A stretch of 64,000 bases of DNA from a virus (IMGVR_UViG_3300010167_001484:64001-128000); one strand, 5' to 3'. Positions 29,049-49,177 are shown, numbered from the stretch's first letter. Notes: a model not told the origin generated them from the sequence alone. Numbers and translations are program-made.

Positions 29049-29248
29049 TAATATCTACAAAAATAGAAATATATGATAATTGTTGTGAATGTGAGTATGT
29101 GAGAACTGATTCTGTAGATTTTGCTGAAATGTTTACTTGTGGAGTTGATCCTTCCTTAGATGTTACAGATTTAATAATTCAAAGATCTAAATTTTATCAT
29201 CCATGTTGTCCAATGCAGAGAATATTTATCAAAGGAGGATTGGTATGA
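29045..29248 (+). CDS. hypothetical Cys-containing protein
   Basis: ORF with overlapping junctions. Confidence 0.5.
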   Translation: MIISTKIEIYDNCCECEYVRTDSVDFAEMFTCGVDPSLDVTDLIIQRSKFYHPCCPMQRIFIKGGLV

Positions 29249-30234
29249 AATTATATTTTAGTGGTGCGTCAACTTTTAGAGCATATGAAACATTGAAGAA
29301 AATGCCCGATTATAGACCTTTAACTCTATTACATACTCAATATGAACGTTCATCTATTGATAAGGTAAAACCCTTCATAGATAGTGGTGATGTTGAACCT
29401 TTATTCATAGATAGTGGAGCATTTTCAGTTCATACAGGTAAAGTTGAAGAGAATATTGAAGAATATGTTCATTATTTAAATGAGATTGATGATTATGTTC
29501 ATCTTGCTGCTCAATTTGATGAAATTCCTGGTGAATATCGCAAACCAAAAACTCCTGAACATTATATATATTCAGCTGAAAGAAGTTGGGCAAATTTCTT
29601 ACAAATGTATGATCATATGAAGTCTCCTGAAAAATTGATATATGTATTCCATCAAGGTGAAGATATATCTAATCTTGTTAGAGCACTAGAATGGAGAGAT
29701 AAAGATGGTAAGGGATTAGGTGTAGTAGGAATATCTGGTCAGAATGACTCTTCAGAAAAGATGAAGAATGAATTTATAATTCAAGCAATAGATATTGTTC
29801 AACATTCTAGTAATCCCAAGTGTAAAACACATCTATTTGGTAGTACAAACAAATATGTAGTAAATGCAGTTCAGCCCTATTCAGCAGATAGTACAACACA
29901 TTTACAGATTGGAATATATGGTAAGATATATATTCCCTCAATATATCAACCTGTGATTGTATCAAATATACAAAGACCTAAAGGTCCTGAATCTGATACA
30001 GCTAATAGTGAAGATGAATCTTCGACAACACTAAAAACACTTCCATATAAAGGTGGATCTGATATGTATAAAGAAGTTGAAACATATCTGCACAGCTTGA
30101 ATCTAACTATGAATGATGTAGAAGGCTCTTCTTATTGTAGAATGGCAGTAAATATATATTATTGGCAAAGGCAATTTGATCATATAACTGATCTAAATGT
30201 GATAACTCACCCTAGATCTAAGAAGTTATTCTAG
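29245..30234 (+). CDS. tRNA-guanine transglycosylase-like protein, probable DNA 7-deazaguanine insertase (DpdA-like)
   Basis: FIDSGAFS, FDEIPG, VFHQGE, HLFG, SADSTT motifs; co-occurs with yhhQ. Confidence 0.8.
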   Translation: MKLYFSGASTFRAYETLKKMPDYRPLTLLHTQYERSSIDKVKPFIDSGDVEPLFIDSGAFSVHTGKVEENIEEYVHYLNEIDDYVHLAAQFDEIPGEYRKPKTPEHYIYSAERSWANFLQMYDHMKSPEKLIYVFHQGEDISNLVRALEWRDKDGKGLGVVGISGQNDSSEKMKNEFIIQAIDIVQHSSNPKCKTHLFGSTNKYVVNAVQPYSADSTTHLQIGIYGKIYIPSIYQPVIVSNIQRPKGPESDTANSEDESSTTLKTLPYKGGSDMYKEVETYLHSLNLTMNDVEGSSYCRMAVNIYYWQRQFDHITDLNVITHPRSKKLF

Positions 30235-31190: not shown

Positions 31191-31205
31191 AGTATGAACT
31201 TTAAA

Positions 31206-31303
31206 TCGTATAAATATACGAAAAAATCGTATAAATATACGAAGTGTTTGTGTGCACCATATCGCAGCGAGCATAATTTGATTTCATTCGTATAAATATA
31301 CGA
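31206..31303. repeat. copy 2 of the three-palindrome element
   Basis: TCGTATAAATATACGA at 31206-21, 31227-42 and 31288-303, with the CCATATCGCAGCGAGCAT core. Confidence 0.9.
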
Positions 31304-31331
31304 AATCATATATAAGAAAAGAGGTAGTAGC

Positions 31332-32117
31332 GTGTCTATTCAAGCTATATTTTCATCTAAATTATATAAAGCTAGTCCACGTAAAGTTAAGATTAGGGCA
31401 GCTCTAAATAGTCCTGTTAATGTTGAGTTAGTTCAACAATTGACTGAATATTTAGATGATGATTCAAAAGAATTATTAGAAAATGAGATTGATAAGGATA
31501 CTAATCTTGATACAGCTAATCCAGAAGGTGGAGAGCCCTCAAAAGGAGGTAGTTCCGGAGGATCTGGAGGAGGCGGAGGATCATTTTCTGGTGGGGGTGG
31601 ATCATTCTCTGGTGGAGGTGGCGGTGAATTCTTCACAGCATCTCCTGATGGTGATATTGAGGAGGGGTTTGATGATTCGGAATCTTCTGGTGATGTGTCT
31701 TTTGAAGATGAATCTGAGGCTCCTGATATAGATGATGGTGATGATGTAGACTCTGGTACAAAGATTAAAGGTCAAGCTATTGCAGCTTGTTATGATCCTG
31801 CTCAACTTCCAGGTCAAATAAAGTCAACTTTGAATATGAGAGAAGATACCGCAGGAGTAGAACGAGTTGCTACTAAGGAATGTGAACTCTGGATATATTA
31901 TAATGATAAAGTTAATCTTAACAATGTGATGTCTATGGTAATTGAGGTATTGAATGCTGCAAGTTATAGTTATTTGAATTTTAACAGGTTAGCTCGAACT
32001 GATAATGCGATTGTATTTGATATTGATTTAGTCAATTCAGAACAATTAGTTGAACCTATAGAAGAAAAAGATATAGAACCTATTGGTAATCCGGAAGATC
32101 GTATTGTGAAGGAGTAA
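31332..32117 (+). CDS. hypothetical protein with Gly-rich/acidic disordered linker (possibly head-associated)
   Basis: GGGSFSGGGGSFSGGGGGEFF followed by an acidic tract. Confidence 0.65.
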   Translation: MSIQAIFSSKLYKASPRKVKIRAALNSPVNVELVQQLTEYLDDDSKELLENEIDKDTNLDTANPEGGEPSKGGSSGGSGGGGGSFSGGGGSFSGGGGGEFFTASPDGDIEEGFDDSESSGDVSFEDESEAPDIDDGDDVDSGTKIKGQAIAACYDPAQLPGQIKSTLNMREDTAGVERVATKECELWIYYNDKVNLNNVMSMVIEVLNAASYSYLNFNRLARTDNAIVFDIDLVNSEQLVEPIEEKDIEPIGNPEDRIVKE

Positions 32118-32120
32118 AGG

Positions 32121-32318
32121 ATGAAGAAATTAGTTAAGTCTGATATTGATGAAGAATTAGATCAGAATATAACAGATTTAGTAGATGAATTCAATACTCA
32201 AGTTATGGACCCTGATTCTGAATTACGTAAATTGTTATCTGGTTATGTTGATGATGCTATATTAGAAGAAGCATTGATAGCAGCTATGCAAACATTTAAT
32301 GAAATTATATTAGGATAG
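32121..32318 (+). CDS. leader-peptide array protein (MKKLVKS)
   Basis: basic leader followed by an acidic body. Confidence 0.7.
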   Translation: MKKLVKSDIDEELDQNITDLVDEFNTQVMDPDSELRKLLSGYVDDAILEEALIAAMQTFNEIILG

Positions 32319-32329
32319 GGAGATAAATT

Positions 32330-32551
32330 ATGAAGAAGATAATAAGATCTAATGTTAGGGAAGGGTCTAGAGATATAGTAACATCTGGTTTGAATGTATT
32401 GGCTAGCAAGGCAGATGAAATAATACTTTGGGACAAATTACGTGAATTTGAAGAATTTTTATATGAAATAGAGCATGATGTCAATGTGAAGGATATTCAG
32501 AAAGCTATTGATGTATTCATCAATGATTTTGATTGGACTATAGATAAGTAA
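32330..32551 (+). CDS. leader-peptide array protein (MKKIIRS)
   Basis: basic leader followed by an acidic body. Confidence 0.7.
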   Translation: MKKIIRSNVREGSRDIVTSGLNVLASKADEIILWDKLREFEEFLYEIEHDVNVKDIQKAIDVFINDFDWTIDK

Positions 32552-32572
32552 TTCTAGATGGTTAGGTAAATT

Positions 32573-32935
32573 ATGAAAATTCTTGCTCGTACTCGCGAAG
32601 ATATACCTTTAGAAAACCAAGGTGGAAATTGTTTCAAAGTAGCATTTGAAACAATGCAGAAAGATCCTAAGAAGTATATACTTGTTCACGCAGTAGTAAC
32701 TGGTCAAGGCCCTATAGAAGGTGTTAAATACAGTCATGCTTTCGTTATAGATGATAGTAGAGATATTGTAATTGATAATACACTCAAAGGATCTGAAAAA
32801 GAATTTCCCGTTGGTTTGTATTACAGTATTGGTGAAATTGAGATTTCTAAAGAATACACTTATAGAGAAGCTCTTAAAGCTATTGTAAAATATGAACATT
32901 GGGGTCCTTGGGATTCGGAGATAAGTAGATATTAA
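32573..32935 (+). CDS. leader-peptide array protein (MKILAR) with Cys-His papain/transglutaminase-like motifs
   Basis: GNCF, LVHAVV, HAFV, VID motifs. Confidence 0.65.
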   Translation: MKILARTREDIPLENQGGNCFKVAFETMQKDPKKYILVHAVVTGQGPIEGVKYSHAFVIDDSRDIVIDNTLKGSEKEFPVGLYYSIGEIEISKEYTYREALKAIVKYEHWGPWDSEISRY

Positions 32936-32947
32936 AGGACGGGAATT

Positions 32948-33250
32948 ATGAAAAGATTGATAAGGGCTAATAAAACTCCTGTGGGGGCTATTCTTAGTAA
33001 AGTTGCTAATACTGTTAATAATGAATTTAAAGGTACAAGTCTTCATGTATCTAGAAATGATGGTGGTACTACTTATTCTATAACTGTTGACAATTCAGAT
33101 GATCTTCATCTATTAGACGAAGCTGTAGATTTCATAAATAACAAGTATCCAGATCTTGAAGCATTTACACATAAAAACCGTATGGCTAAATATAATGACC
33201 CAAATACTCGTAGCGGTATGCCTACTAAAGGTGTTATGCGTTATAGATAG
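32948..33250 (+). CDS. MKRLIRA-leader protein
   Basis: shared N-terminus, unique body. Confidence 0.75.
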   Translation: MKRLIRANKTPVGAILSKVANTVNNEFKGTSLHVSRNDGGTTYSITVDNSDDLHLLDEAVDFINNKYPDLEAFTHKNRMAKYNDPNTRSGMPTKGVMRYR

Positions 33251-33307
33251 TAATCATGGAAGTTGTTGTGAAGATAATTTATAGTTTATAATGAGTTATC
33301 ATATTAG

Positions 33308-33384
33308 TACATCAACTCCCACAAGAGTTGTATCAAATATATAAGAAAATTGAAGGTAAAATTTAATGAAGAGGTTGATAAGGG
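33308..33384 (+). repeat. 77-bp cassette-boundary repeat (hairpin + RBS + MKRLIR codons)
   Basis: identical to 34898-34974; 6 substitutions versus 34477-34553; partial copies near 35322, 36579 and 36989. Confidence 0.92.
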
Positions 33385-34193
33385 CGACTGATTATAAACT
33401 GGAAAAACACGAAAGAACTAAATATAAAAGTAAATTAAGGTCATCTACAAGTAAATTATTAAAAGAGCAATTCGGTACGAGTGTAACTATTAATAGTTTC
33501 AAGTATGATTTCTATGGTGAAGATACTATATGTATAACTTTTGAGTCCGATTCATTTGAGGGCCGTGTAGTTCTTGCTATTCTTGGTGATTATAATGGTT
33601 ATAATGCAATTGAAATAAATGGTAATTATTTTGGATCTTGGGGAAATAACAGTCAATTCTCAGAAAATGAGTTTGTGTCAAGTCAAACATTTAAGAATGA
33701 TTTTGTACCTTTATTTGAAGAATACTTTCAATCTATAGGGTTAGGTAAACCAGATAAGCCGGCTGAATTGCGAGTTAATCCTAAGCAAAGTCCTATGATG
33801 GTAGCAGTTGTTAAGGATCTATTGAATGATCTTAGAAGTCAAGTGAATCTACCTTTTAGTGATGCAGAAATAGTTGGATCTATTGGTAGAGAGATAAATC
33901 ATAGTGATTTATCTTTAGATTGGATTGATTTGAGTTATTCGGATGTATGTGGATTATTTTTAGGTTTTAGAGTAACTTATCATTATGTTAATGAGTATGC
34001 TTTCAAATTGTATGATATAGAAAGTGGTAGTTCATGTTGGGAATCATTTGGACGTCGTAGATTAAGTGTACTTCAACGAAAGAAGGATAGTGGTAATTGG
34101 TTTGAGACTGAAAGTATACATGTTAATAAAGAGAGCTATCCTGAGATATTTGAATTACCTGCATATAAGAAATTATATGATGAATATTATTGA
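33366..34193 (+). CDS. MKRLIRA-leader protein (275 aa)
   Basis: shared N-terminus; preceded by the repeat. Confidence 0.8.
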   Translation: MKRLIRATDYKLEKHERTKYKSKLRSSTSKLLKEQFGTSVTINSFKYDFYGEDTICITFESDSFEGRVVLAILGDYNGYNAIEINGNYFGSWGNNSQFSENEFVSSQTFKNDFVPLFEEYFQSIGLGKPDKPAELRVNPKQSPMMVAVVKDLLNDLRSQVNLPFSDAEIVGSIGREINHSDLSLDWIDLSYSDVCGLFLGFRVTYHYVNEYAFKLYDIESGSSCWESFGRRRLSVLQRKKDSGNWFETESIHVNKESYPEIFELPAYKKLYDEYY

Positions 34194-34223
34194 AGAAGTT
34201 TAAGATAGAAAGGTGTAAACATT

Positions 34224-34535
34224 ATGCCTAGAAAATTACCAATAACCGAAGAGCTAAATTTTCATTATTTATTAGGTTTAATGCCTGCTTTGAAGAATGA
34301 ACCAGAATTTGAATGGTTGCCAGAATTATTTTCAATAGTAGGTTATGAATCACTAATAGATCTTTGTAGATTTGCCGGTGGAGAAACAATAAGAATACCT
34401 ACTTTAGATGAATTAACTACAAGTATAGATGTATTACAATGGTATTATGATATCAATGTGAAGCGGTCTAAGAAGCTACATCAACTCCCAATAGAGTTGT
34501 ATCAAATATATAAGAAAGTTGAAGGTAAAATATAA
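34224..34535 (+). CDS. Mor/C-like transcription-activator-family protein; its 3' end carries the cassette repeat in frame
   Basis: ELFSIVGYESLIDLCRFAGGETIRIP resembles the Mor family; C-terminus HQLPIELYQIYKKVEGKI is encoded by the repeat. Confidence 0.6.
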   Translation: MPRKLPITEELNFHYLLGLMPALKNEPEFEWLPELFSIVGYESLIDLCRFAGGETIRIPTLDELTTSIDVLQWYYDINVKRSKKLHQLPIELYQIYKKVEGKI

Positions 34536-34888
34536 TGAAAAGATTGATAAGGGCTGATGGAACACGAAAAGAGTCTTTGCTGAATCAACTTGAACCTGAA
34601 TTGATAACAGTGTTGAAGCAAAATGGGTTGAAACATAAATGGCATTATGGTCAAAGTAGATTCACATCTAGTATATTATCATTCGAAGAGATTGTTGATA
34701 TATTGGTATCTGAAGGGTGTATAATTCTGAAGGCAGTTAATTATCCTTGTAGAGGTGGGGGTCGTACTCAATATACGATATTACAAACTCCTGAAGGTTT
34801 GAAGTTAAGTGTAGAGTATTTCAGCAAAGTGTCTTCATACATAATGGAACATAAAGATACACATCATATGTATGATACAGCGGGATAG
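34535..34888 (+). CDS. MKRLIRA-leader protein (GC..TP.G domain)
   Basis: shared N-terminus; start overlaps the stop of the Mor-like gene. Confidence 0.8.
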   Translation: MKRLIRADGTRKESLLNQLEPELITVLKQNGLKHKWHYGQSRFTSSILSFEEIVDILVSEGCIILKAVNYPCRGGGRTQYTILQTPEGLKLSVEYFSKVSSYIMEHKDTHHMYDTAG

Positions 34889-34955
34889 CTGATTTAATAC
34901 ATCAACTCCCACAAGAGTTGTATCAAATATATAAGAAAATTGAAGGTAAAATTTA

Positions 34956-35282
34956 ATGAAGAGGTTGATAAGGGAGTCAGAAGAATTAATAACAGATATA
35001 TCATCAATAAAAGACTTACTAGATAAGGAGGTTATATCTATATTAATTGATCTTGGTTATGTATATAGACCTAATAATAATGAATATACAAAGAAAAAGA
35101 ATTCAGATTCAAATATATATGATTTATTTTATGCACTTGAATCTGTTGGATGTGTTGTCAAACAAAAACACCGTCAATCTGAAATATATAGTCGAGGAAC
35201 GTCTAAGATTTACACAACTCCTAATGGTGTAGATATTGTGATATATGGTGGAGGCGGAATAGCTGTAAAACTTGCAAATTGA
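34956..35282 (+). CDS. MKRLIRE-leader protein (GC..TP.G domain)
   Basis: preceded by an exact 77-bp repeat copy. Confidence 0.8.
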   Translation: MKRLIRESEELITDISSIKDLLDKEVISILIDLGYVYRPNNNEYTKKKNSDSNIYDLFYALESVGCVVKQKHRQSEIYSRGTSKIYTTPNGVDIVIYGGGGIAVKLAN

Positions 35283-35348
35283 TGTAATTATAAATATTAT
35301 CTAAGTGTGATTTATTATATTAAATAAGAAAATTGAAGGTAAAATTTA

Positions 35349-35909
35349 ATGAAGAGGTTAATAAGGGCTAGTAGATCTAAAGAAGTTACATTAAATCGTG
35401 TAGAACATGATAGAGATTCAGAAGTATATAAGGGAGAAGGTGAACGTATTTACTATGATTATTTTGACTCTCAAGATAATTATTTAGTATCTATATGTTA
35501 TTTTCCTAAGAGTAATGGCTTATTTGTTGACGAAACTAGACTATGGGAAGAGTTAAATTCTGATACTAATGTTATGCCGTTCACTCACAGAAGAAGTAAT
35601 GGTGAAGAATCTATACATCATGTAAATAAAGGTTCATTAAGAACATATTACGATTCCATAGATAAGTTTGAGCGTCAACTTAGGAAGTTATACAAAGCAA
35701 ATTGTATTGATATTAAAGAAGATGATTCTTATGAAGGTGACAGTTATGAGAGTGACGGTGATTCATACCTCAACCAACTCGAAGCCGAAGGATATGAATG
35801 CACTGATCAATCTACACAAGGTGGAGGAAGAGTAGGAACCTACACATATGAGCATCTTGAAACTGGTGATGTGATTGTTGTTGATGCAGGAGACTACAAT
35901 TGGGATTAA
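35349..35909 (+). CDS. MKRLIRA-leader protein
   Basis: preceded by a partial repeat. Confidence 0.8.
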   Translation: MKRLIRASRSKEVTLNRVEHDRDSEVYKGEGERIYYDYFDSQDNYLVSICYFPKSNGLFVDETRLWEELNSDTNVMPFTHRRSNGEESIHHVNKGSLRTYYDSIDKFERQLRKLYKANCIDIKEDDSYEGDSYESDGDSYLNQLEAEGYECTDQSTQGGGRVGTYTYEHLETGDVIVVDAGDYNWD

Positions 35910-35933
35910 TTGATAGAAAGTCGAGAATATGAT

Positions 35934-36536
35934 ATGAAAAGATTGATAAGGACGTCTCAAGAAAATTCTATTCAGAATATTCAAAATAATTGTGAAAATA
36001 TATTAAAATCTCAATTACAGGTTGAAAATTCTACTGTCAAAGTTGATATAAGTGATAATAGGCTTAGACCTGAGATAAATATTAAGTTTTATTTAAACGG
36101 GCGTGCACGACCAATAACAAAAACATATTATCCTTTCAACAGAAGTAAACAATGGGGACTATCATATCATGCTGATGCAAGTGATAGTGATATTAAATTG
36201 ATATATAATTTAGATTATAACTGTATAGTAGAATTAGGTCGTATGTTAACTCGAACTAAATCATTCACAACTAAGTTAGATTCTAATATTAAATCTATGT
36301 TATTAGGTTTAGGATTTAAATATAATGCATCAGAATCATCGTTCAGATTATATGCAGATCCAAATACTATAGATTTATTCAATAAATTACAATCATCCGG
36401 ATGCGAATTAGTATCTAATGATTCTCAATATGATACTGTATATCAAACACCTGAAAATGTCAAAATATCAATATATGTTAGTAATAATCCTCGTTCTTAT
36501 CATGGTGATTACATATCAATTAGCGAAGCATCTTAA
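35934..36536 (+). CDS. MKRLIRT-leader protein (C-terminal GC..TP domain)
   Basis: ATG at 35934 gives the shared leader. Confidence 0.75.
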   Translation: MKRLIRTSQENSIQNIQNNCENILKSQLQVENSTVKVDISDNRLRPEINIKFYLNGRARPITKTYYPFNRSKQWGLSYHADASDSDIKLIYNLDYNCIVELGRMLTRTKSFTTKLDSNIKSMLLGLGFKYNASESSFRLYADPNTIDLFNKLQSSGCELVSNDSQYDTVYQTPENVKISIYVSNNPRSYHGDYISISEAS

Positions 36537-36610
36537 TAATCATACTGGTAAGGATTAGGAGATACAATAAAATTCTATAAAATATATAAGAAAGTTGAAG
36601 GTAAAATTTA

Positions 36611-36910
36611 ATGAAAAGATTGATAAGAGCAGGAAGTAATAACATATATAGTAAATTAGAGCAAGCATTACAAGGACATTTGAATCAGATGTTAGGAGAT
36701 CAAAATTTTAAATTTGATATTAATCTTGAATTTGAAGATGAAGAGATGTGTATAGATATAGATGTTATGGATTCTAATAATGCTATTCTATATACAGGAG
36801 GATTCATGCTTGAGCGTGATCGTTTATCTAAAGCTAATCTCAATGCTTCCGCGTATGGTGTAGTGGAATCTTTGAAAGAGATATTATATGATGAAGAGTT
36901 GATAAAGTAG
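36611..36910 (+). CDS. MKRLIRA-leader protein
   Basis: preceded by a partial repeat. Confidence 0.8.
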   Translation: MKRLIRAGSNNIYSKLEQALQGHLNQMLGDQNFKFDINLEFEDEEMCIDIDVMDSNNAILYTGGFMLERDRLSKANLNASAYGVVESLKEILYDEELIK

Positions 36911-36913
36911 TAT

Positions 36914-37033
36914 ATTAAGAGATTGATAATAGTAAACAGAACATTGGGGTATAGTGATTATGATAATTGGAGTGAATTAAAATTCTTCATAGAGTTTTAT
37001 CAAATATATAAGAAAGTTAGGGATAAGATATGA
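36914..37033 (+). pseudogene. remnant cassette (IKRLII...EFYQIYKKVRDKI)
   Basis: ATT-AAG-AGA-TTG-ATA degenerate leader, in frame with a diverged copy of the repeat peptide. Confidence 0.55.
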
Positions 37034-37260
37034 AAAGATTGATAAGGGCTCAAAGTGAACTCAAGAAGACTGTTAGTGTTAGTTTTCAAGTAGATATTCC
37101 TATAGATATGGAAAATAATTCTTATAGAGATATAGTTAAAGCTAGAGTAGGTCTTAGTAATGGTGTTAATGTAGTTGTTCAAGATGCATTTATTCCTGAA
37201 ATTGCTAATCAAGTAGAGACTGATGAGTTATTAGAATCATTACAGAATAAGGGTTCATAA
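37030..37260 (+). CDS. MKRLIRA-leader protein
   Basis: preceded by a diverged repeat. Confidence 0.75.
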   Translation: MKRLIRAQSELKKTVSVSFQVDIPIDMENNSYRDIVKARVGLSNGVNVVVQDAFIPEIANQVETDELLESLQNKGS

Positions 37261-37460
37261 TGTTAGAAATAATCAAAGAATCTATACAACAGTTATCAAA
37301 TATAACCTTTAATGAATTTTATATGAAGTATGTATTTGATATACAAGATCAGAATATGGAAGCCGAATTTAATCAGATAACAACTGCGGCTACTGCATAT
37401 AGGACTGATGTCAAATTTGTAGATAAATTATTGAATAATGCAATGAAAGGGCTAGTGTAA
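37260..37460 (+). CDS. hypothetical protein
   Basis: start overlaps the previous stop; no leader. Confidence 0.6.
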   Translation: MLEIIKESIQQLSNITFNEFYMKYVFDIQDQNMEAEFNQITTAATAYRTDVKFVDKLLNNAMKGLV

Positions 37461-37463
37461 ATT

Positions 37464-37664
37464 ATGAAGAAGCTGGTTAAAAGTAATTATAGTGGTCAAG
37501 ATATAATAGATCTAGAGAATCGTATCAAGAGTGCTGAAATCTATTTGGAAGATATAGTATCTGCATTTCATAGATTAATTGACGAAGGTAGAATGGTTGA
37601 GATTGATGATGCTTTAGATACAATTATTCCTTCGTTGATAGATGTATGGAAGAAACATTGTTAA
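37464..37664 (+). CDS. leader-peptide array protein (MKKLVKS)
   Basis: same leader as 32121. Confidence 0.7.
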   Translation: MKKLVKSNYSGQDIIDLENRIKSAEIYLEDIVSAFHRLIDEGRMVEIDDALDTIIPSLIDVWKKHC

Positions 37665-37674
37665 AGGGGCTATC

Positions 37675-38064
37675 ATGAAAAGATTGATTAGATCTAATAC
37701 TGCAACACTTAGAAGTTTACCTACAAGTTATTTAGCAGATGCTATAAGAGATTTGTGGAATGGTCCTGAAGAGAGTATACCTACGTGTCAGAAAGAATAT
37801 ATTGAATATTTTAATAATAAGGGTATAGATATTTCTGATGAAGAACAATGGGATCGTGCATGGGATGAAGCATGTGGTCCTGAACCTGAAGAAGAGGTTC
37901 TAAAATTAGGTGGTAGAGAGTTTTATGATAGGCATGACGCTAGTGAATGGTTGATAGAGAAAACTCAAGAATATGGTAATACATATTTCTTTCCAGATAA
38001 TGATAGATATGTATTAAATCAACTTATCGAGAAATTCGGTAATACTTATTTTTGGAATAGATAA
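37675..38064 (+). CDS. MKRLIRS-leader protein
   Basis: ATG at 37675 after RBS AAAGGGG. Confidence 0.75.
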   Translation: MKRLIRSNTATLRSLPTSYLADAIRDLWNGPEESIPTCQKEYIEYFNNKGIDISDEEQWDRAWDEACGPEPEEEVLKLGGREFYDRHDASEWLIEKTQEYGNTYFFPDNDRYVLNQLIEKFGNTYFWNR

Positions 38065-38075
38065 GGATTAAACAG

Positions 38076-38522
38076 ATGATAAGTGCTCAGATATTTAGAA
38101 ATTTATATGTTGATTTATATAAAGAATTGCGTAAATATCTCTGGGATATAGATGCTGTTACATTGATTGTGGATTTAGAAACTGAAACACATAAAGCATT
38201 TCCAGATGTGATTCAACTAAATTCTATATTGGGTAGACTTAAGAGACAAACTATAAGTACATCTCTTGAAGATGAGGAATTGTCAGATGCATTTGATAGT
38301 TTTGAAGAAGCTTTGAAAGATGTAGATGATTTTGTTACATTAATAAAATATCCCACGCCTACACCTTTAGATGTAGAGAAAACTGAAGATGAAGATGAGG
38401 TTTTGGAAGAAGCTATAGATGATAATCTTGAAGATGGATTTGAGGGAGATGTAGAAGAAGAATCGTCTGAAGAAACTGGTTTTGGGGAATTTGAGGAGGA
38501 GGTTGAAAATGAAAATCAGTAA
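38076..38522 (+). CDS. hypothetical protein with acidic C-terminus
   Basis: ORF with RBS. Confidence 0.65.
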   Translation: MISAQIFRNLYVDLYKELRKYLWDIDAVTLIVDLETETHKAFPDVIQLNSILGRLKRQTISTSLEDEELSDAFDSFEEALKDVDDFVTLIKYPTPTPLDVEKTEDEDEVLEEAIDDNLEDGFEGDVEEESSEETGFGEFEEEVENENQ

Positions 38523-38709
38523 AAGTAGTATTAATGCAAATAAACGAGCATCTAATAATGTCAAAGCTACAACAAATAATAGAAGTGAAGCAGTGGAATA
38601 TATCCAATCTGCAATACATTCATTAGGTACAAATGCTAAAGATGATGTAGTTGCGAAAGAATCAATAGCAAATCTTAGTGTTATATTGTTCGATTTGAAG
38701 GGAAGTTAA
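38509..38709 (+). CDS. hypothetical protein (MKISKSSINA...)
   Basis: ATG at 38509 after GAGGAGG. Confidence 0.65.
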   Translation: MKISKSSINANKRASNNVKATTNNRSEAVEYIQSAIHSLGTNAKDDVVAKESIANLSVILFDLKGS

Positions 38710-38713
38710 ATCT

Positions 38714-38899
38714 ATGAAGAAGGTTGTAAAATCAGCATATGATGAATCTAACGAAGGAATTAAACGGGAAATTGTAGATAAATTATCTGAAATTTATGAA
38801 ACTATAGCTAATAATCCAGATTTGTTAGATACACCTGATATATCTGAGAGTATTAATGAGTTGTCTAGTTTATTGTTTGAAATAACTGGTTTAGCATAG
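38714..38899 (+). CDS. leader-peptide array protein (MKKVVKSA)
   Basis: basic leader, acidic body. Confidence 0.65.
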   Translation: MKKVVKSAYDESNEGIKREIVDKLSEIYETIANNPDLLDTPDISESINELSSLLFEITGLA

Positions 38900-38911
38900 A
38901 TATAAAGATAG

Positions 38912-39454
38912 GTGAAATGGATGGCAGGTTCTGAAACCGTCAGTACCGGCGGAAATAATTATTTGAATCCTTTAGTAACTAAACAGAGAGAAAATGTAGC
39001 CAGAATGCGAACCGCATTACTGGCTTCAACTGATGATAATACTGTAACAATGCGTCAAGCTATTCAGAATATTACTGCTATGCGTATCTACCATCAATTA
39101 ACAAGAATAATACAATATACCGAATTGATGACTGAACTTGAAGATAAACTTTATGATTCTATTTCAGATACTGTGAGGACAGCTCCAACGACTGATCCAA
39201 CAACATGGATAGCACTTCTTAATATACAGGAAAGATTACAGAAGAATTTGATTGAAAGTCATAAATTACTTCAGCCTTACCTTAATGTATCAGAATTTAA
39301 TATAGTAGATCTAGTAGATGCACCAGTTAGTGATGAGACGGAAGAAAGTACAGGATTGATAATATCTTCTCAATCTAGGGATAATATTAGAATACGTGCT
39401 CAAGCGATACTTTCGCAAATTGAAATATTAAATAATAATGAAGGAGAAAATTAA
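38912..39454 (+). CDS. helical protein, candidate terminase small subunit
   Basis: size, helical character and position two genes upstream of terL. Confidence 0.4.
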   Translation: MKWMAGSETVSTGGNNYLNPLVTKQRENVARMRTALLASTDDNTVTMRQAIQNITAMRIYHQLTRIIQYTELMTELEDKLYDSISDTVRTAPTTDPTTWIALLNIQERLQKNLIESHKLLQPYLNVSEFNIVDLVDAPVSDETEESTGLIISSQSRDNIRIRAQAILSQIEILNNNEGEN

Positions 39455-39777
39455 TGGAAACTTGTCAATGTGAAGATCACGGTCATGAAGTAATCAAGGA
39501 TACGGCAAAATATATTGCAAAAGTAGATATTATAAATAATATCGATACACAACTCAATCAGTTTATAGCTGAACACGAAGAATTAACAAAACGTTCTGAT
39601 GAATATCTTAATGTTGTTGAAAATATTCGTATTAAATTGTTTGGGATAAAGGGTGCAGTAGACGCTCTCAATTCACTCAAAGATACGTTCAATAATTTTA
39701 TTGAATCAAACCCTAATATAGGTTTTATACCTTCGGAATCTAGTATGATTGAGGATAATGAACACAGTAATAATTGA
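39454..39777 (+). CDS. hypothetical coiled-coil protein
   Basis: RBS; start overlaps the previous stop. Confidence 0.6.
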   Translation: METCQCEDHGHEVIKDTAKYIAKVDIINNIDTQLNQFIAEHEELTKRSDEYLNVVENIRIKLFGIKGAVDALNSLKDTFNNFIESNPNIGFIPSESSMIEDNEHSNN

Positions 39778-41725
39778 AGATGATATATTAGAGAGAATAC
39801 AGAATATATATGATAGTTGTACTGAAGAGGAGCAAGGTTACCTTATACAAATTCTTGAAGAATTTAGTAGTAGAGGTTATTCAGAAACCTATGAAAAAGT
39901 ATGGTTAGCTGATTATAGAGAAATTCCTGTAGATATAAACACTTTTATAGAATCTGATACTTATCTTGGTAGAACCAACAATCAAGGTAAAGCAGTATAC
40001 CCTTTCTGGCGGAAAGAACTTCGTTCATTTTTTGGTGCAGGTAATAAATATCATGAATGGGTTCTAACAGGTGCAACTCGTATAGGTAAGACCTCAACAG
40101 CTATAACAGCTACTTGTTATATGTTGTATCGTATAATGTGTCTTAGAAATCCTCAAGCATTTTTCAAGTTGAAGGATATATCTAAATTTAGTATACTATT
40201 CTTCAATATAACAAAAGATTTGGCTCAAGGTGTTGCTTATCAAGAATTTAATGCTACTTTAGCTGCTAGTCCATGGTTTCAAGCGCATGGTACGATGTCT
40301 CGTAGTATCAAGAATCCTTATTATATTCCCGAGGGTGGAAAGATAGATATTGACTTTGGTTCAGATGCGTCGCACGGACTTGGAAAACAAATCATTGTCG
40401 GGTTCTTGGATGAGGTGAATTTTAGTCAAGCAGGTGTCAAAGATGTAAATAAAGCTAAATCACGTATGAGAGCTACATATAATACCGTATCTACTCGTGT
40501 TAAAGGTACTTTTAGAATAGAAGGAGAGGTATTAGGTAAAGTATTTGCAGTTAGTTCTAAACGTAGTGACTCAGATTTCATGGAAGCTTATGTTCAAGAG
40601 CAAAGGAATGCTGGTGCAGGTGACAACATGTATATCACAGATGCACCACAATGGGAAGTATTTCCTCCAGGTAAATTCAGTAAAGAAACATTCTGTATAG
40701 CTTTAGGTGATAGATATCAAAGAGGGTTTGTTTTAAATGATGATCAGTGTTTTCCCGAAGCTATAAGAGATTTAGAAGCTCAAGGATTCAAAATATTACG
40801 ACCACCTATAGATATGAAGTCGGATTTTCTAGCAGATTTTCTTATAGCACTTCGAGATCTAGCAGGTATAGCTATTGTAGGTATGATGTCATTTATAACA
40901 CAAGATACAATTGATACATGTATAAATAGAACAAGACGAAATCCTTTCTATAGTGAAATATTACAGATTGGTACTAAAGATAGCTATACTATAGAAGAAT
41001 ATTTCCATATAGAGGATCTGCCCTCGAATATAAAAAAAGCACCTCTATTTATACATCTAGATCTTTCTAAGAATATAGATAGAACCGGTTTAGGCGGAGT
41101 GGCAATAACAGGCAGAAAGGATATATTAAGTAATATAGAAGATGAAAAAGGTAATACTAAACAAATTAAGATATCTCAACCTACTTTTACTCATGTGTTT
41201 AGTCTTGCTATAGAAGCGCCGAGGGGTGATAAGATACCTTATGCTAAGATTACAGCTTTTATATGTTGGTTACGGTCTAATCATTTTAATATCCTAGGAG
41301 TTAGTGCGGACCAGTTCCAAAGCGAATACATGCTACAACTCTTAGAAGCACAAGGCTTTGATGTAGATAATATATCGTTAGATAGGACACCTGATGGATA
41401 TATAACAACAAGATCTATTCTAATGGAACAAAGAATTGATTTGTTGAATCATAAATTACTTCAAGATGAATTAATTCATTTACAACGAGATTCTGCTACA
41501 GGGCGCTTGAATCATCCAATAGGACAAACAAAGGATATATCTGATGGGTTGGCGGGAGCTCTTCTAAATGCAACAAGAAAAAACCCTCCTATAGCTTTAC
41601 CTGGTAAAACATTATCTAAAGTAGTAACAACTGTGAATAAACCTGATAGAATGCCTCAAGGTGTAGTTAAAGGTGCAGATCTACCCAGTGTATTTGGTGA
41701 TTTGTATAAGAATTATAGAAAATAA
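39758..41725 (+). CDS. terL: terminase large subunit
   Basis: VLTGATRIGKTS Walker A, GFLDE Walker B, HLDLS and KDISDG RNase-H-like nuclease acidic residues. Confidence 0.9.
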   Translation: MNTVIIEDDILERIQNIYDSCTEEEQGYLIQILEEFSSRGYSETYEKVWLADYREIPVDINTFIESDTYLGRTNNQGKAVYPFWRKELRSFFGAGNKYHEWVLTGATRIGKTSTAITATCYMLYRIMCLRNPQAFFKLKDISKFSILFFNITKDLAQGVAYQEFNATLAASPWFQAHGTMSRSIKNPYYIPEGGKIDIDFGSDASHGLGKQIIVGFLDEVNFSQAGVKDVNKAKSRMRATYNTVSTRVKGTFRIEGEVLGKVFAVSSKRSDSDFMEAYVQEQRNAGAGDNMYITDAPQWEVFPPGKFSKETFCIALGDRYQRGFVLNDDQCFPEAIRDLEAQGFKILRPPIDMKSDFLADFLIALRDLAGIAIVGMMSFITQDTIDTCINRTRRNPFYSEILQIGTKDSYTIEEYFHIEDLPSNIKKAPLFIHLDLSKNIDRTGLGGVAITGRKDILSNIEDEKGNTKQIKISQPTFTHVFSLAIEAPRGDKIPYAKITAFICWLRSNHFNILGVSADQFQSEYMLQLLEAQGFDVDNISLDRTPDGYITTRSILMEQRIDLLNHKLLQDELIHLQRDSATGRLNHPIGQTKDISDGLAGALLNATRKNPPIALPGKTLSKVVTTVNKPDRMPQGVVKGADLPSVFGDLYKNYRK

Positions 41726-41979: not shown

Positions 41980-43569
41980 ATGTATCTTGCGAATGTTCTG
42001 AAAGCTGGGGACTATTTAGTTCCTGTACCTGTGGGATTGCCATTAACATTACAATACAATTTCACAGGTAATTTAGAAAAGGTGTATCTTCGTTTTGGTA
42101 ATGACAGAATAGAAGTGACCGAAGATCTTCTTGAAACTATCAGGAAGAATCATACCGTGCCACATATGGTACATGTTAAGAAGGGGATAACAACTATAAG
42201 AGGTATTCTTTATACAGCAGATCTGGCGTTTGATCCTGGACATCTGCCCTATTGTGTAGAGAGTACACTGAAGCAGAAATTCTTAGATAGTCCTAGTAAA
42301 TTCAATTTCTTTGCAGTGACTTGGGATAGTAGTGAAGCTGTTGTAATTGGACCTACTCCTGCTAAACAGATGTTAACTATGTCTAAATTTAGGACACTTC
42401 CAGGTTGGCTAGTACCTGCAGCTATGTCTGTAGATATATTGAAGAGCTGGACTCATTATCCTTCTTATACATTTCATCCTGATATGATTACTAATTATGT
42501 TATATTCAGAGATGATAAAGTAATTTTCCATGTTACTCAAATGAAACAATTTATTGTAACTATGGTTAAGAAATATACTGATGAAAACGGTTTCATCAAA
42601 GCTCGTATATATCTAGTTGACGCTGTTGATACTAATTTTCCTAATCATATATCTATTGATTACTCTGAATTACTTAAATGGAATATACATTCAGATTCAT
42701 TGGTTGTATTTGATTCTATTAATCAAATTATATTCACTATGTCTACAACTAATAAGAAGCGAGAGAAACGTAGTAATAAATTAGGTTGTACCTTCTGTAA
42801 CAGGGCATTCACTGTGCCTAAAGAGGGGGAAGTTATTTGTCCTGACCCTCATTGTACATCTAGATTAATTCCACATATTCGTCAATTTATAAATGTTATG
42901 GGTCTTGAAGCTAAATCGGCTGAAAAGATATGTAGTTGGATCACTAAAGAAGGTATTACATGTATACCTGATATCTTCAATCTCGAAGACTACAAAGTAG
43001 GTAAAATTGAACTTGAAGTAACATTAGGTAAGCTATTGAGATCTCTGGTTCCATTTAGTTATTTACCAAAAGAAGATGTACTTCGTATATTTGCAAATTG
43101 TTGTACGAATAATATTGATATGTTTTTACATTATTGTGAAAATCCCGAATCAGCAGTAGTAGATTTGCAACTAGTTCATAAAGATTTTGGAAAGTTAGCT
43201 GAGTGGTTGAATGATAATTATAATTTTGCAGATATTCAAACGCTTCTAAGTTTACCTCAGATAGTTATAGAAAAAACTGATAAGAAATTTGAAGGTGCAC
43301 CTATATTTAGAGATAAATGTATCTATTTAACAGGTGATTTTATACGAGGAAATCAATCAGATATTGCAGCTATCTTAACAAGTTATTCTGCAAAAGTTAT
43401 ACATAGTTTTGAAGATAGTGTTGATTGTGTTATAGTAGGTGGTCTAAGAGAAAATATCAATGGTCAAGATGTGAGTAGGGCAAAGACATTAGGAATAAGT
43501 GTCTTTGAAGAAGAGGATTTTTTCTTGAATTATGAAATCGACGAGGATTTAAAATCTAACCTTTCATAA
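41980..43569 (+). CDS. degenerate NAD-dependent DNA ligase (LigA)-like protein with Zn finger and BRCT, lacking the catalytic KxDG
   Basis: PVPVGLPLTLQY in place of EPKxDG.S..L.Y; IRGIL in place of VRGE; CTFC..C....C; C-terminal BRCT (IYLTG...DCVIVG...AKTLGISVF). Confidence 0.75.
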   Translation: MYLANVLKAGDYLVPVPVGLPLTLQYNFTGNLEKVYLRFGNDRIEVTEDLLETIRKNHTVPHMVHVKKGITTIRGILYTADLAFDPGHLPYCVESTLKQKFLDSPSKFNFFAVTWDSSEAVVIGPTPAKQMLTMSKFRTLPGWLVPAAMSVDILKSWTHYPSYTFHPDMITNYVIFRDDKVIFHVTQMKQFIVTMVKKYTDENGFIKARIYLVDAVDTNFPNHISIDYSELLKWNIHSDSLVVFDSINQIIFTMSTTNKKREKRSNKLGCTFCNRAFTVPKEGEVICPDPHCTSRLIPHIRQFINVMGLEAKSAEKICSWITKEGITCIPDIFNLEDYKVGKIELEVTLGKLLRSLVPFSYLPKEDVLRIFANCCTNNIDMFLHYCENPESAVVDLQLVHKDFGKLAEWLNDNYNFADIQTLLSLPQIVIEKTDKKFEGAPIFRDKCIYLTGDFIRGNQSDIAAILTSYSAKVIHSFEDSVDCVIVGGLRENINGQDVSRAKTLGISVFEEEDFFLNYEIDEDLKSNLS

Positions 43570-43606: not shown

Positions 43607-45109
43607 GTGGCTAATAGATTATTAGAACGACTTATTCCTAGCGATAAGAAAAATAGAAATAAATTCACATCATTTATTCGCAAAGTTGTAGCTGGTTCAT
43701 TCTATAAATTCAGTGATCTGAGAGGTAATACAAGTTTAGCTGATATAAATACTATGATAGAGATGATGCGAGAACTTGCAAGAGATTCTCAAATAGCTAC
43801 AGCTTTATCATACTATGCAACTGATGCAACAACGTATAATACAGATAATCAAATAATTTGGGCTACTTCTAAAACTAATCCAGACTTAGCTGAAATCATA
43901 AATCAACTCTTTAAGAAATGGAAAATCAATACGTATGCTAGAGATCATATTCTTGAACTTGCAACTATAGGTAATTTATATATTCCTACAACGGAGATGT
44001 ACAAAGTTGAGGGTAGAGCGACATCTCGTAATCTAATTGCATTAGACAACAATACAATACCTGAGGTAGAATTTGATATTGTTCCCTCTTATAAAATCCC
44101 TCCTGAAAATATAGTGCATCTTTGGTTTGAAGGTCAACCTGAAGGTTATATGTATCAACCTGAAGATAATTCTACACAATTTGTAAATTATTCTGAATCT
44201 GCTGTTATACATTTCTCTTTAGGAGGACTTCTAGGTGAATATACTCTAGATACAGTATTACCTGGTGGGGATGTAAAAACATATGATATAATGTTTGCTC
44301 AACCTTTGATGGTAAGAGCTATTCAGCCTACACAAACATTGAGTCTTTTAGAGGATGCATTATTGTTATCCTCATTATCCCGTGTTGTGAGATTTGTAAA
44401 TGTGGAATGTGGTAATGCAGAAGAAGAGGAAATCCGAGCAACACTTCAAGAATTGAAAGATGCTATCGAACAACAACTTGCTATAAATACTAATACGGGT
44501 GATGCACAAAGTTTTGTTAATCCTCAAAGTCCGAATAATCTGATATTCTTACCTAAAATAAATGGTGCTGATTCTATATCTGTAACAGATTTGAATGTAG
44601 CAGATGCAACTGAAGCGGATAATAAACTCCTTCAACATTATATGGATAAGAAATTATCTGTTCTAGGTGTGCCAAAAGAGGCTATGAACTTTTCTTCTAA
44701 TGAAGGTCTTGGAGGTGCAGGTACAGTTCTTGCTCAAAGATCTCAATTATATGCTAATTCATTACAACGTCTAATGACTGCATATAAAGAGGGCTGGAAA
44801 GATGCTTTGAATACAAGGTTTATAGCATTAGGATTCAGCGGATTTGTAGATCAGTTTGAATTAAACATGAACCCAATTTTAACTCAACAATCTACTCTAA
44901 CCTTCGAGAAACGTGATGCAGCATTGAGTCAAGCAACTGCATTATTCACATTACTCAGAGATATGGGTGTAGATGATCCTAATACATTTAGAGATGGTTT
45001 AGTTGAAATATTATCTGAGGTATTCCCACAGATAGGTGCTCAGATAAGTAAATGGAATATCAATGTTGAAGGTGAAGGGGAAGAAGGTGGTGGGTTAGGT
45101 GAATTCTAG
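43607..45109 (+). CDS. portal protein
   Basis: 500 aa near terL; IATALSYYA.D, R.VRFVNV.CGN, KLSVLGVPKE motifs resembling T4 gp20-type portals. Confidence 0.8.
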   Translation: MANRLLERLIPSDKKNRNKFTSFIRKVVAGSFYKFSDLRGNTSLADINTMIEMMRELARDSQIATALSYYATDATTYNTDNQIIWATSKTNPDLAEIINQLFKKWKINTYARDHILELATIGNLYIPTTEMYKVEGRATSRNLIALDNNTIPEVEFDIVPSYKIPPENIVHLWFEGQPEGYMYQPEDNSTQFVNYSESAVIHFSLGGLLGEYTLDTVLPGGDVKTYDIMFAQPLMVRAIQPTQTLSLLEDALLLSSLSRVVRFVNVECGNAEEEEIRATLQELKDAIEQQLAINTNTGDAQSFVNPQSPNNLIFLPKINGADSISVTDLNVADATEADNKLLQHYMDKKLSVLGVPKEAMNFSSNEGLGGAGTVLAQRSQLYANSLQRLMTAYKEGWKDALNTRFIALGFSGFVDQFELNMNPILTQQSTLTFEKRDAALSQATALFTLLRDMGVDDPNTFRDGLVEILSEVFPQIGAQISKWNINVEGEGEEGGGLGEF

Positions 45110-47262: not shown

Positions 47263-47874
47263 ATTTTACATAAATATGATGAAGCCATAGCTGAAAATCT
47301 TCAAGAATCTTTTAATCAAGATTCTGATAAACGTGTTACTGTGAAGGCTGTTTCTTCTGAAAGTATTTTACAACTTGTTGCTCAGATAAAAGAAGATGAA
47401 ATAGAGTTTCCTGTTGTTGCTCTAGTAAGGAGTCCTAATTACCAATTAGATTCAGCCAGAATGAATTTTACAATGAGGCAACAAGGTATTCAATCTGTTA
47501 TGGATACAGAAACAAATGAGATATTTCAAGAAAGATCTCTTCCAGTTACATTGAGTTACAGTTTAACTATTCTAGCAACTAATACAATAGATATGGATGA
47601 ACTCGAAAGAGAGTTACTCTTCAAATATACATCCATGTATTTCTTAAGTATAAATTTACCTTATGAGGCAGATCGTAAGATTAGATTCGGTATTGAGGTT
47701 GATTTTGATCAAGATATAGATAGATCTTCTACTACAGGTGAATATTTAGCTGAAGGGAAATTGCATCAAACAGTGATACCGTTAAAATGTCAAGGTGCTG
47801 TATTAGTTCATTATACACCATTTAAATTAAAACGTACAGAAGTTGGTTATGAGATAGTCACACCCGGGGAGTGA
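47263..47874 (+). CDS. probable tail terminator/completion protein (gp15-like); start probably ATT at 47263
   Basis: FPVVAL.R and PVTLSYSLTI...DELERELLF motifs; frame is open upstream of GTG 47341 with an RBS before the ATT. Confidence 0.55.
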   Translation: MLHKYDEAIAENLQESFNQDSDKRVTVKAVSSESILQLVAQIKEDEIEFPVVALVRSPNYQLDSARMNFTMRQQGIQSVMDTETNEIFQERSLPVTLSYSLTILATNTIDMDELERELLFKYTSMYFLSINLPYEADRKIRFGIEVDFDQDIDRSSTTGEYLAEGKLHQTVIPLKCQGAVLVHYTPFKLKRTEVGYEIVTPGE

Positions 47875-48518
47875 TTATGGATATAAGATTAAAATTATAC
47901 ACCGGTGATGGTGATAGATTATTACCAGAATTAGATCGTGAATCTATTGTTGATTTAATATATCCAATAGGTAGTATATATTTGACTGTTAATGAATCAC
48001 GTCCTGAAATCTTATTTGGTGGAGAATGGGTAGAATGGGGTCAAGGAAGAGTTCCCATAGGATTAGGGCAAGGTGCAGGATTAACCAATCAATCTATTCT
48101 AGAGTATACAGGTGGATCAGAGACAATTTCTCATACACATACTAGTTCAGCTCATACACATACATCGGTTGCACATACACATACTAGTGCAGCTCATACT
48201 CATGCTGAAGGTACATTGGCTGCAAGTATGAATTCACAAACTGGTGGTATATATGTGCGAGAGAGGTCTGTTAGTGGTAATTGGCCTGCCACTTATTTAT
48301 TTAATATTCCTGGGGCTACAAGATCAAATACCACATTGGGTATGTCTGCAAACAATAATGCACAAGTTTTTGGGGCAACTGGATCTACAACTCCGGGAGC
48401 TACAGGATCTACAACCCCGGGAGCTACAGGATCTACAACTCCAAATGATACAGGAAATACAGTTGTATCCATTGTTCAACCCTATATAGTTTGTTATATG
48501 TGGAAACGGATTGCATAG
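47871..48518 (+). CDS. His-needle tail fibre/receptor-binding module 1
   Basis: YPIGSIY..LFGG.W...GR collar, HTH repeats, TGSTTPGA repeats, QPYIVCYMWKR. Confidence 0.8.
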   Translation: MIMDIRLKLYTGDGDRLLPELDRESIVDLIYPIGSIYLTVNESRPEILFGGEWVEWGQGRVPIGLGQGAGLTNQSILEYTGGSETISHTHTSSAHTHTSVAHTHTSAAHTHAEGTLAASMNSQTGGIYVRERSVSGNWPATYLFNIPGATRSNTTLGMSANNNAQVFGATGSTTPGATGSTTPGATGSTTPNDTGNTVVSIVQPYIVCYMWKRIA

Positions 48519-49168
48519 TGTCTAAGAAGTTAGAATTGAAAACAGAAGAAAGTGAAGAATTATATCCTAGAATACATGTTGATCAGATATATCCTATCGG
48601 TTCAATTTATATGAGTGTAAATAGTATCAATCCCTTTGAATTATTTGGAGGTGTATGGGAACCTTGGGCAGCTGGTAGAGTTCCTGTAGGTATAGAAGAT
48701 TTTGGTAAATTTAATTTATCTGAAGCTGTTGGAGGAGAAGAATCAACGATTTTAACAGTAGATCAACTAGCTCAACACAATCATAGTAATACTAATAATC
48801 CTACTACACTTCCAGCAAGTGGAGTTCCTAGTAATAATACTACAGCTAATCAATCTGCTAATCATAATCATACATATACAACTCCTCCTAGATTATTTGT
48901 TAATGTAGATAATTCAATAGGTTCAACTGAATGTATTAATCCAGCTATTGCAGAAGCTTCTAGAGTTCATGCTCGTGGTGGTCAAACAACTTGTAATCTT
49001 GATACAGGAACTACAAGCCATAATCTTACAAGCCATAATCATACAATGCAGAATCATACACATACGTTACCAAATCCTATACATCCTACAAATAATGAGG
49101 GCGCTAACCAAGCACATAATAATTTACAACCATATATAGTTTGTTATATGTGGAAACGTGTTGCATAA
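48518..49168 (+). CDS. His-needle receptor-binding module 2
   Basis: same framework; GTG start at 48518. Confidence 0.8.
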   Translation: MSKKLELKTEESEELYPRIHVDQIYPIGSIYMSVNSINPFELFGGVWEPWAAGRVPVGIEDFGKFNLSEAVGGEESTILTVDQLAQHNHSNTNNPTTLPASGVPSNNTTANQSANHNHTYTTPPRLFVNVDNSIGSTECINPAIAEASRVHARGGQTTCNLDTGTTSHNLTSHNHTMQNHTHTLPNPIHPTNNEGANQAHNNLQPYIVCYMWKRVA

Positions 49169-49177
49169 TAGAATTAG

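Follow-up and report, generated by a model that had tools for sequence, protein, structure and literature searches.

What could a seven-residue start contribute that recurs in a row of small and otherwise mostly unrelated phage proteins? The question is raised by a locus in the 64,000-nucleotide stretch IMGVR_UViG_3300010167_001484:64001-128000 (the window in what follows), which makes up bases 64001-128000 of a contig of 214,046 bp from an uncultured phage, with 33% G+C and all genes on one strand. Positions below are those of the window unless given as genome positions. Between 32121 and 38899, 14 open reading frames (ORFs), all on the plus strand, start with a leader of the form M-K-(K/R/I)-(L/I/V)-(L/I/V/A)-(K/R). 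We read the heptapeptide M-K-(K/R)-(L/V/I; Tyr in relatives)-(I/V)-(K/R)-(A/S), with a small or polar residue behind it, as a peptide address tag of one clade of large, uncultured phages. The tag would mark proteins for incorporation into the assembling prohead, where a protease of the gp21/assemblin fold, fused to the scaffold, would trim it after the small residue 7. The tagged proteins form a fast-changing accessory set, mostly small and acidic and in some cases with protein-binding repeats or anti-restriction-type domains, and they would be carried in the head and reach the host cell together with the DNA. The analysis establishes the tag, its spread, its conservation as a peptide, the insertions in the packaging operon, the protease fold and the site enrichment; cleavage at the sites and of the tag, packaging and injection are inferred. 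We give an even chance to the proposal that this is a head-cargo tag comparable to the capsid-targeting sequence (CTS) of T4 and recognized by a protease of gp21/assemblin type whose sites are of the Ala|Ser type.

The leader, its spread and its conservation as a peptide

Nine of the leader genes begin with MKRLIR followed by Ala, Glu, Thr or Ser. The start is MKRLIRA in the genes at 32948-33250 (100 amino acids, aa), 33366-34193 (275 aa, with a copy of the junction repeat described below ahead of it), 34535-34888 (117 aa, its start overlapping the stop codon of backbone gene B as TAATG) and 37030-37260 (76 aa). It extends to MKRLIRAS at 35349-35909 (186 aa, acidic) and to MKRLIRAG at 36611-36910 (99 aa, acidic), and reads MKRLIRE at 34956-35282 (108 aa), MKRLIRT at 35934-36536 (200 aa) and MKRLIRS at 37675-38064 (129 aa). 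The remaining five carry variants, namely MKKLVKS at 32121-32318 (65 aa, acidic) and 37464-37664 (66 aa), MKKIIRS at 32330-32551 (73 aa, acidic), MKKVVKS at 38714-38899 (61 aa) and a degenerate MKILAR, continued as MKILART, at 32573-32935 (120 aa). Every coordinate of the 14 starts listed in an earlier note on this DNA was borne out, and no further leader match was found in the 64-kb window, minus strand included. A Shine-Dalgarno-like site precedes 13 of the 14 genes. That the bodies behind the leader are mostly unrelated and often acidic, as the note had stated, was likewise confirmed: 10 of the 14 proteins are acidic, and BLASTP and phmmer connected just the three paralogues at 34535, 34956 and 35934. 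Pfam and PHROGs gave no match for the array proteins. The note had also rejected a Sec signal, rightly so, since in each of the 14 genes polar or acidic residues fill positions 8-25 and the hydrophobic core of a Sec or lipoprotein signal (about 10 or more residues after the basic N-region) is absent.

The 120-aa MKILART protein shows a Cys...His arrangement (GGNCFKVA / YSHAFV) in which Cys20 opens a predicted helix and the His lies in a later strand. It may be a small papain-like enzyme, as a candidate only; a single-sequence AlphaFold model reached a pLDDT of 41, too poor to use.

Genome-wide, about 40 ORFs carry the tag, or some 13% of the genes. About 20 consecutive leader genes form a second array at genome 180.6-195 kb, 85 kb from the window array, and single leader genes adjoin the head module. 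The earlier placement of the leader in the late region just upstream of terminase is thus correct in part: the window array belongs to the packaging operon, with no terminators between it and the gene for the terminase large subunit (TerL), and the leader is not confined to this region. The motif is bound to the protein start, 26 of its 33 plus-strand occurrences following directly after Met, and a scan with a position-specific scoring matrix (PSSM) placed 33 of the 39 hits of at least 12 bits at residue 2. A degenerate DNA pattern gave 27 matches on the coding strand, none on the other strand and one for the reversed control. By phmmer, 27 of the 40 tagged bodies are singletons. A strong internal copy of the leader was traced to an 823-aa protein (genome 183168-185639; L028:4169-6640) in which a module of leader plus SPEDFLNAL..ELEGG..SA occurs twice, at residues 1-35 and again at 142-175. 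The protein is a fusion of two leader-bearing genes, which accounts for the internal copy, and its second half is a separate gene (P0004) in a sibling phage.

Codon usage shows at which level the leader is conserved. Across the 40 genes, one and the same position draws on either codon family of its amino acid: AGR or CGN for Arg, TCN or AGY for Ser, TTR or CTN for Leu. Position 7 is filled by GCN, TCN, AGY or ACN codons and the hydrophobic position 4 by TTR, CTN, GTN, ATH or TAY, the last of these in relatives, which carry Tyr there and otherwise spell the same peptide in different codons. Since synonymous codons of different families are used while the residues stay, it is the amino acids that are constrained, and the tag, as judged from these sequences, is a hallmark of one clade.

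In the relatives the consensus leader is MKRYIK[SA][SA], and arrays of at least three leader genes were present in 16 of 80 fetched loci. Phages with the MKRYIK form occur in rumen samples. One relative locus holds 11-13 leader genes in a row with one MKRLIR among them, and the sibling phage, on a contig of 219 kb, has MKRLIQSS, MRKVITAS, MKILIKAT and other leaders. The degenerate pattern was counted 27, 20, 17 and 10 times in the largest genomes and 0-8 times in the others, always on the coding strand, with 0-1 matches for the reversed control. The clade genomes (G000-G012) measure 118-253 kb and have capsid proteins 62-65% identical, and larger genomes tend to contain more leader genes, though not strictly; tagged genes number about 40 in this phage and 0-20 in its relatives. 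All complete array-bearing genomes, and those fragments that cover the region, encode a major capsid protein (MCP) 62-65% identical to that of this phage, with 63-64% in the complete genomes. No cultured phage was found in the clade, the best MCP match being that of Bacillus phage HSE3 at 27%, and a literature search for the motif strings returned no paper describing the tag. Leader genes adjoin the head module in two relative loci (L152 and L153) and lie upstream of the terminase genes in a third (L007); in a fourth (L095) the array adjoins baseplate-like genes. Some relatives have extended leader variants, such as MKRTFTKYPSSILAS and MKRKFTKYPSNISAS, which keep only I-x-A-S about 12 residues from Met.

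Head protease, candidate sites and cargo

The head module was located through Bacillus phage HSE3 and contains a gene for a 482-aa protein (genome 161393-162841) followed by that for the MCP. The 482-aa protein matched phrog_207 (head maturation protease) with an E-value of 3.5e-20 and is, judging from its sequence, a head maturation protease fused to a coiled-coil scaffold. The Pfam S77 and S78 models gave no protease match, and a profile search of the protease domain against the PDB sequences returned none. The protease domain extends from genome 161393 to about 161900, and its Ser120, the invariant Ser of GISIRG, is the presumed catalytic residue. A model of the protease domain at the N-terminus had a pLDDT of 65, and Foldseek placed T4 gp21 (5JBL) at ranks 1-3 with a probability of 1.0; pseudorabies assemblin followed at rank 5 as a weak match (E 0.23). 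The modelled protease domain thus has the gp21/assemblin fold.

Candidate cleavage sites were analyzed in six aligned protease-scaffold orthologues and the corresponding MCPs, with composition-preserving shuffles for comparison. The tetrapeptide IAAS stands directly after the protease domain in all six orthologues, and (I/V)TAS about 45 residues from the scaffold C-terminus in five of them. The motif [IVL].A[SG] recurs repeatedly along the scaffold, with 6-10 copies per orthologue vs 1.1-1.5 after shuffling (P <= 0.0005 in 6/6), and permuted control motifs occurred 0-2 times. In each MCP, 1-4 copies fall within the first ~70 residues; the first 75 residues were enriched with P <= 0.014 in five of the six, with P = 0.2 for the MCP of G000 itself, and the remainder of the MCP showed no enrichment. 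No other protein of the proteome reaches the site density of the protease-scaffold. Second in density was a 602-aa protein (genome 145783), which we discounted as a Gly/Ala/Ser-rich protein encoded among tail and lysin genes. As the motif had first been noticed after the leader was seen, we also ran an unbiased search of reduced-alphabet patterns (h, hydrophobic). This ranked h.AS first, with 46 occurrences vs 6.7 expected (z about 17), and found basic-h-x-A enriched too. The end of the leader shares the core of these candidate sites in the forms IRA|S and IKA|S.

The cargo offers hints in the same direction. Among 97 tagged proteins of the clade, about 90% have no Pfam domain; those of the rest are LRR_5, LRV, HEAT repeats, GNAT, S-AdoMet lyase and one IS200-like match. 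The S-AdoMet lyase family is that of the anti-restriction enzyme of T3. A tagged protein of 378 aa in this phage carries a DarA_C-like module directly behind the leader and has an orthologue with a Tyr-type leader in a relative (L076). Its match to PF18789 (DarA_C) scored 22.7 bits, below the cut-off of 27; all seven family members match, each below the cut-off, with a best E-value of 1.5e-5. The 378-aa protein had no match among cultured phages, and a profile search of its DarA_C-like domain against the PDB sequences gave none. DarA of phage P1 lines the inner capsid and leaves with the DNA (PMC12810830). The domains found among the tagged proteins hint at injected effectors.

Two further proteins were noted beside this material. 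A relative encodes a 136-aa protein with a Tyr-type leader and a HEIGH zinc-metalloprotease motif (L101:4980-5387). Beside the head module of this phage, a 453-aa acidic protein (genome 166126-167487; L032:6126-7487) has the leader-like start MKIQVNSS; the domain at its end matches phrog_3636 'DNA binding protein' and looks Dps-like by eye only. A RiPP-like pairing of leader and dedicated modifying enzyme would predict one enzyme gene regularly next to tagged genes; no recurrent enzyme was seen beside the arrays in loci read by eye, without systematic neighbourhood statistics.

The packaging operon and the growth of the array

In 20 IMG/VR loci with a TerL 51-65% identical to that of this phage, homologues of the gene at 30690, of backbone genes A to F and of TerL are tightly packed in the same order, and homologues of the 14 leader genes are absent throughout. 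By this comparison, the leader genes are insertions specific to this lineage, sitting between the backbone genes of a conserved packaging operon. All of these backbone genes lie on the plus strand: A at 31332-32117, conserved in 13 relatives; B at 34224-34535 (103 aa), without Pfam or PHROG match at the thresholds used; C at 37260-37460; D at 38076-38522, with an acidic C-terminus; E at 38512-38709, small and basic; and F at 38912-39454, conserved in 14 relatives and directly upstream of terminase. By its position alone, gene F is a possible small terminase subunit. TerL at 39749-41725 and the portal protein at 43607-45109, both also on the plus strand, follow.

The way in which the array grew has left a trace in the DNA. 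A DNA repeat of up to 88 nt is common to six array genes, its start lying at most 62 nt ahead of the ATG and its end exactly behind codon 7; it is composed of the 3' end (the last codons) of gene B and the seven leader codons. The copies lie on the plus strand at 33304-33391, 34473-34560, 34894-34981, 35322-35374, 36567-36636 and 36989-37050, and outside these no upstream DNA is held in common. A 36-aa remnant ORF at 36923-37033 on the same strand is a truncated copy of the gene B C-terminus and ends in FYQIYKKVRDKI. The identity of the leaders within the window array therefore stems in part from recent duplication of DNA. The earlier note had concluded that the peptide itself is selected, which stands genome-wide by the cross-family codons for Arg, Ser and Leu and has to be qualified within the array, where duplication made part of the identity. 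The junction repeat explains the growth of the array: cassettes would have been inserted and duplicated into the conserved packaging operon by recombination via the repeat of gene-B 3' end and leader codons. No tyrosine recombinase (PF00589) was matched in the genome, the control being matched in 14 of 14 cases. The array is unlike integron-like cassette arrays in this respect and in its junction, which is a gene 3' end plus leader codons and not an attC-like palindrome. Because the homology ends exactly after codon 7, the leader codons could serve two purposes, as DNA micro-homology for the capture and stacking of ORFs and as peptide address to the prohead, a proposal that we consider unlikely. 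Were it true, each captured gene would automatically be injected cargo and the clade would own a self-extending effector library.

Two kinds of regulatory element accompany these genes. At the head of the packaging operon, the element M2 consists of three copies of the palindromic sequence TCGTATAAATATACGA on the plus strand. It occurs in two to three phased copies at only three loci (31200-31305 here and genome 68026-68070 and 139786-139830), each of which heads a large gene block, one for replication, one for packaging and tail and one running into the head module. M2 may be an operator or a late-activator site. The promoter-like motif M1, TTTCGTTATAGTA / AATTTCGTTATAGTA, has about 27 copies genome-wide (e.g. 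at window 14322, 22954 and 61379 and genome 180559), has no -35 element and often follows terminator hairpins. Its copies stand beside both small-gene clusters and structural genes, and one common element, GTATATTGTCATACTTAA..GTATGTGGATT, comes after those at genome 557 and 180559. No early or late assignment could be derived from M1 and M2.

Several neighbouring genes deserve mention. A DpdA-like queuine tRNA-ribosyltransferase gene lies just upstream of the packaging operon (29203-30234), and relatives have a QueC-like gene near theirs, which together fits a 7-deazaguanine modification of the DNA. The link to modified DNA drawn in the earlier note gains the nearby DpdA-like gene and nothing beyond it. 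Between terminase and portal, a 529-aa ORF (41980-43569) gave weak matches to PHROGs of NAD-dependent DNA ligase, and three consecutive paralogues of tail-fibre/baseplate-wedge type (phrog_24267/5717) occupy 47871-49909. Inside the second leader array, a RecU-like (Holliday-junction resolvase-like) gene without leader is found at genome 189363-189842 (L028), with a counterpart in the sibling phage (L029:13376-13843).

Readings of the leader and comparison with known systems

Several observations weigh against a head-cargo tag cut by the scaffold-fused protease. The protease sites appear to be of the form (I/V/L)-x-A|(S/G), as enrichment and position suggest, and a strict h.A[SG] is present in only 20% of the leaders of this phage; 30-46% belong to one or other of the core classes for which the scaffold shows enrichment. 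Many leaders have Ser at the would-be P1 position, and h.S[SA] is barely enriched in the scaffold. The comparison of flanks between leaders and scaffold sites was negative, P4 being Leu or Tyr in the former vs Arg, Ser or Lys in the latter. A first impression that the N-termini of MCP and protease resemble the whole leader was not upheld by the PSSM scan, which did not detect the whole leader in the MCP and detected it weakly at the N-terminus of the protease-scaffold, with empirical P-values of 0.012-0.68. The earlier note had proposed to look for K-x-(L/I/V)-(I/V)-(R/K)-(A/S) inside capsid and scaffold proteins; there the full leader fails, and its four-residue core alone recurs. The cargo is also unusual, most tagged proteins being acidic, whereas the internal proteins of T4 are basic, and one of the 97 tagged proteins of relatives matches an IS200-like transposase, an odd cargo (the member was not located by the motif). 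The largest array lies outside the morphogenetic modules and is headed by a promoter of M1 type, as are many small-gene clusters, so that early expression is possible. Finally, the restriction of the tag to one clade is consistent with a phage-encoded receptor and equally with common descent; with all array-bearing phages in one MCP clade, the two are not told apart. The earlier capsid-targeting reading is supported in part, by the protease of gp21/assemblin fold, the candidate site core at the leader end and the setting in the packaging operon; a full-leader match in capsid or scaffold and a confinement near terminase are not supported.

The looseness of the match between leader and site would suit a docking or sorting tag with another destination (the virion exterior, a decoration or fibre-like adaptor, or a non-virion assembly), its likeness to a protease site being coincidental. 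The BspA-type LRR, LRV and HEAT repeat proteins tagged in relatives are typical binding modules, one array adjoins the baseplate-like genes mentioned above, and clade restriction would be expected for any phage-encoded receptor. We nevertheless hold such a destination to be unlikely, as most tagged proteins are acidic, measure 60-130 aa and show no features of adhesins, no receptor candidate emerged, and the end of the tag shares the very core that the unbiased search ranked first in scaffold and MCP N-termini. The strict position at the free N-terminus could also point to a degron or processing signal that a host AAA+ protease or some other peptidase would read elsewhere than in the capsid and that limits the lifetime or times the activation of takeover and anti-defence proteins. 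ClpX recognizes N-terminal motifs that are short basic-hydrophobic strings, as in the Dps N-terminus ..AKLVKS, and the second array may be driven by a promoter type common to small-gene clusters. The tag differs between phage clades, with Leu or Tyr at position 4, and goes with a single capsid lineage, arrays lie within packaging and head modules, and the extended variants, with their core about 12 residues from Met, fit a cleavage site better than an N-end signal, all of which makes a degron rather improbable in our estimate.

Conservation could instead act on the DNA, with leader codons and upstream segment forming a cassette boundary for recombination or gene capture and the peptide as a passenger. 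The six-copy repeat that runs from up to 62 nt upstream of the ATG to exactly codon 7, the truncated copy of gene B at 36923-37033, the insertion of cassettes into a conserved backbone and the RecU-like gene within the second array of both this and the sibling phage are in line with this. Beyond the six copies, however, upstream DNA is not in common, codons vary freely (Ser TCN/AGY, Arg AGR/CGN) while residues stay, in relatives likewise, and the genome has no tyrosine recombinase of the PF00589 type; a boundary would account for the growth of an array and not for the retention of the peptide in about 40 dispersed genes, and we regard it as very unlikely to be the whole explanation. We give still less credit to a feature of translation, be it a favourable codon ramp near the start or a regulator of translation that binds over the start codon, and call it highly improbable. 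Its A/G-rich codons, the frequency of Lys at position 2 in low-GC genomes and the presence of the tag in the initiation region of about 13% of the genes would agree with it, but the highly expressed structural genes do without the tag (the MCP starts with MAIITKRK and the protease-scaffold with MAAKVKSA), an RNA-binding factor would not tolerate the codon variety at positions 4 and 7, and the fused 823-aa protein retains its internal copy of the leader.

If the tag does load the head, tens of different and rapidly exchanged proteins, about one eighth of the genes, would be packaged, far above the handful in T4 or phage P1, and the tagged set would list gut-phage proteins that are candidates for counter-defence and takeover. 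A tag of seven residues with a matching protease would, if true, provide a compact protein-loading handle.

The proposed head-cargo tag resembles three systems. In T4, the CTS of the internal proteins IPI-III is an experimentally defined short N-terminal tag that ends in a site for the gp21 prohead protease, and its cargo is thought to counter host defences (PMC3012670). Common to both are a short N-terminal peptide on diverse, fast-evolving proteins, the fold of the protease and, as a loose match in the leaders here, an end in the form of a site (hydrophobic P3, x, P1). The sequences MKTYQEFIAE and MKRLIRA have just Met-Lys in common, and the T4 tag has 10 residues, Glu at P1 and a handful of genes, compared to seven residues, an inferred Ala or Ser at P1 and about 40 genes here; in addition, the cargo here is largely acidic, protease and scaffold form one fusion protein, and the system is known from sequence alone. 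In phage P1, an N-terminal signal of DarB, likewise defined by experiment and in need of more than nine residues, loads anti-restriction proteins into the head (PMC9024508), the interior of which is lined by DarA/Hdf. An N-terminal head-loading signal would be a shared feature, as is the DarA_C-like module of one tagged protein, although the P1 proteins have no consensus N-terminus and the DarA_C match here remains below the Pfam cut-off.

[quoted passage not shown] The phage protein likewise is a protease-scaffold fusion, with IAAS after the protease domain and (I/V)TAS near the C-terminus at the positions of R- and M-site and in the same site form. It differs in belonging to a phage, in its weak structural match (E 0.23) and in having many more candidate sites along the scaffold. 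We know of no herpesvirus that uses a protease site as cargo tag. An Ala|Ser specificity, as inferred here in an arrangement like that of the assemblin R- and M-sites, would bear on the shared ancestry of capsid maturation in phages and herpesviruses.

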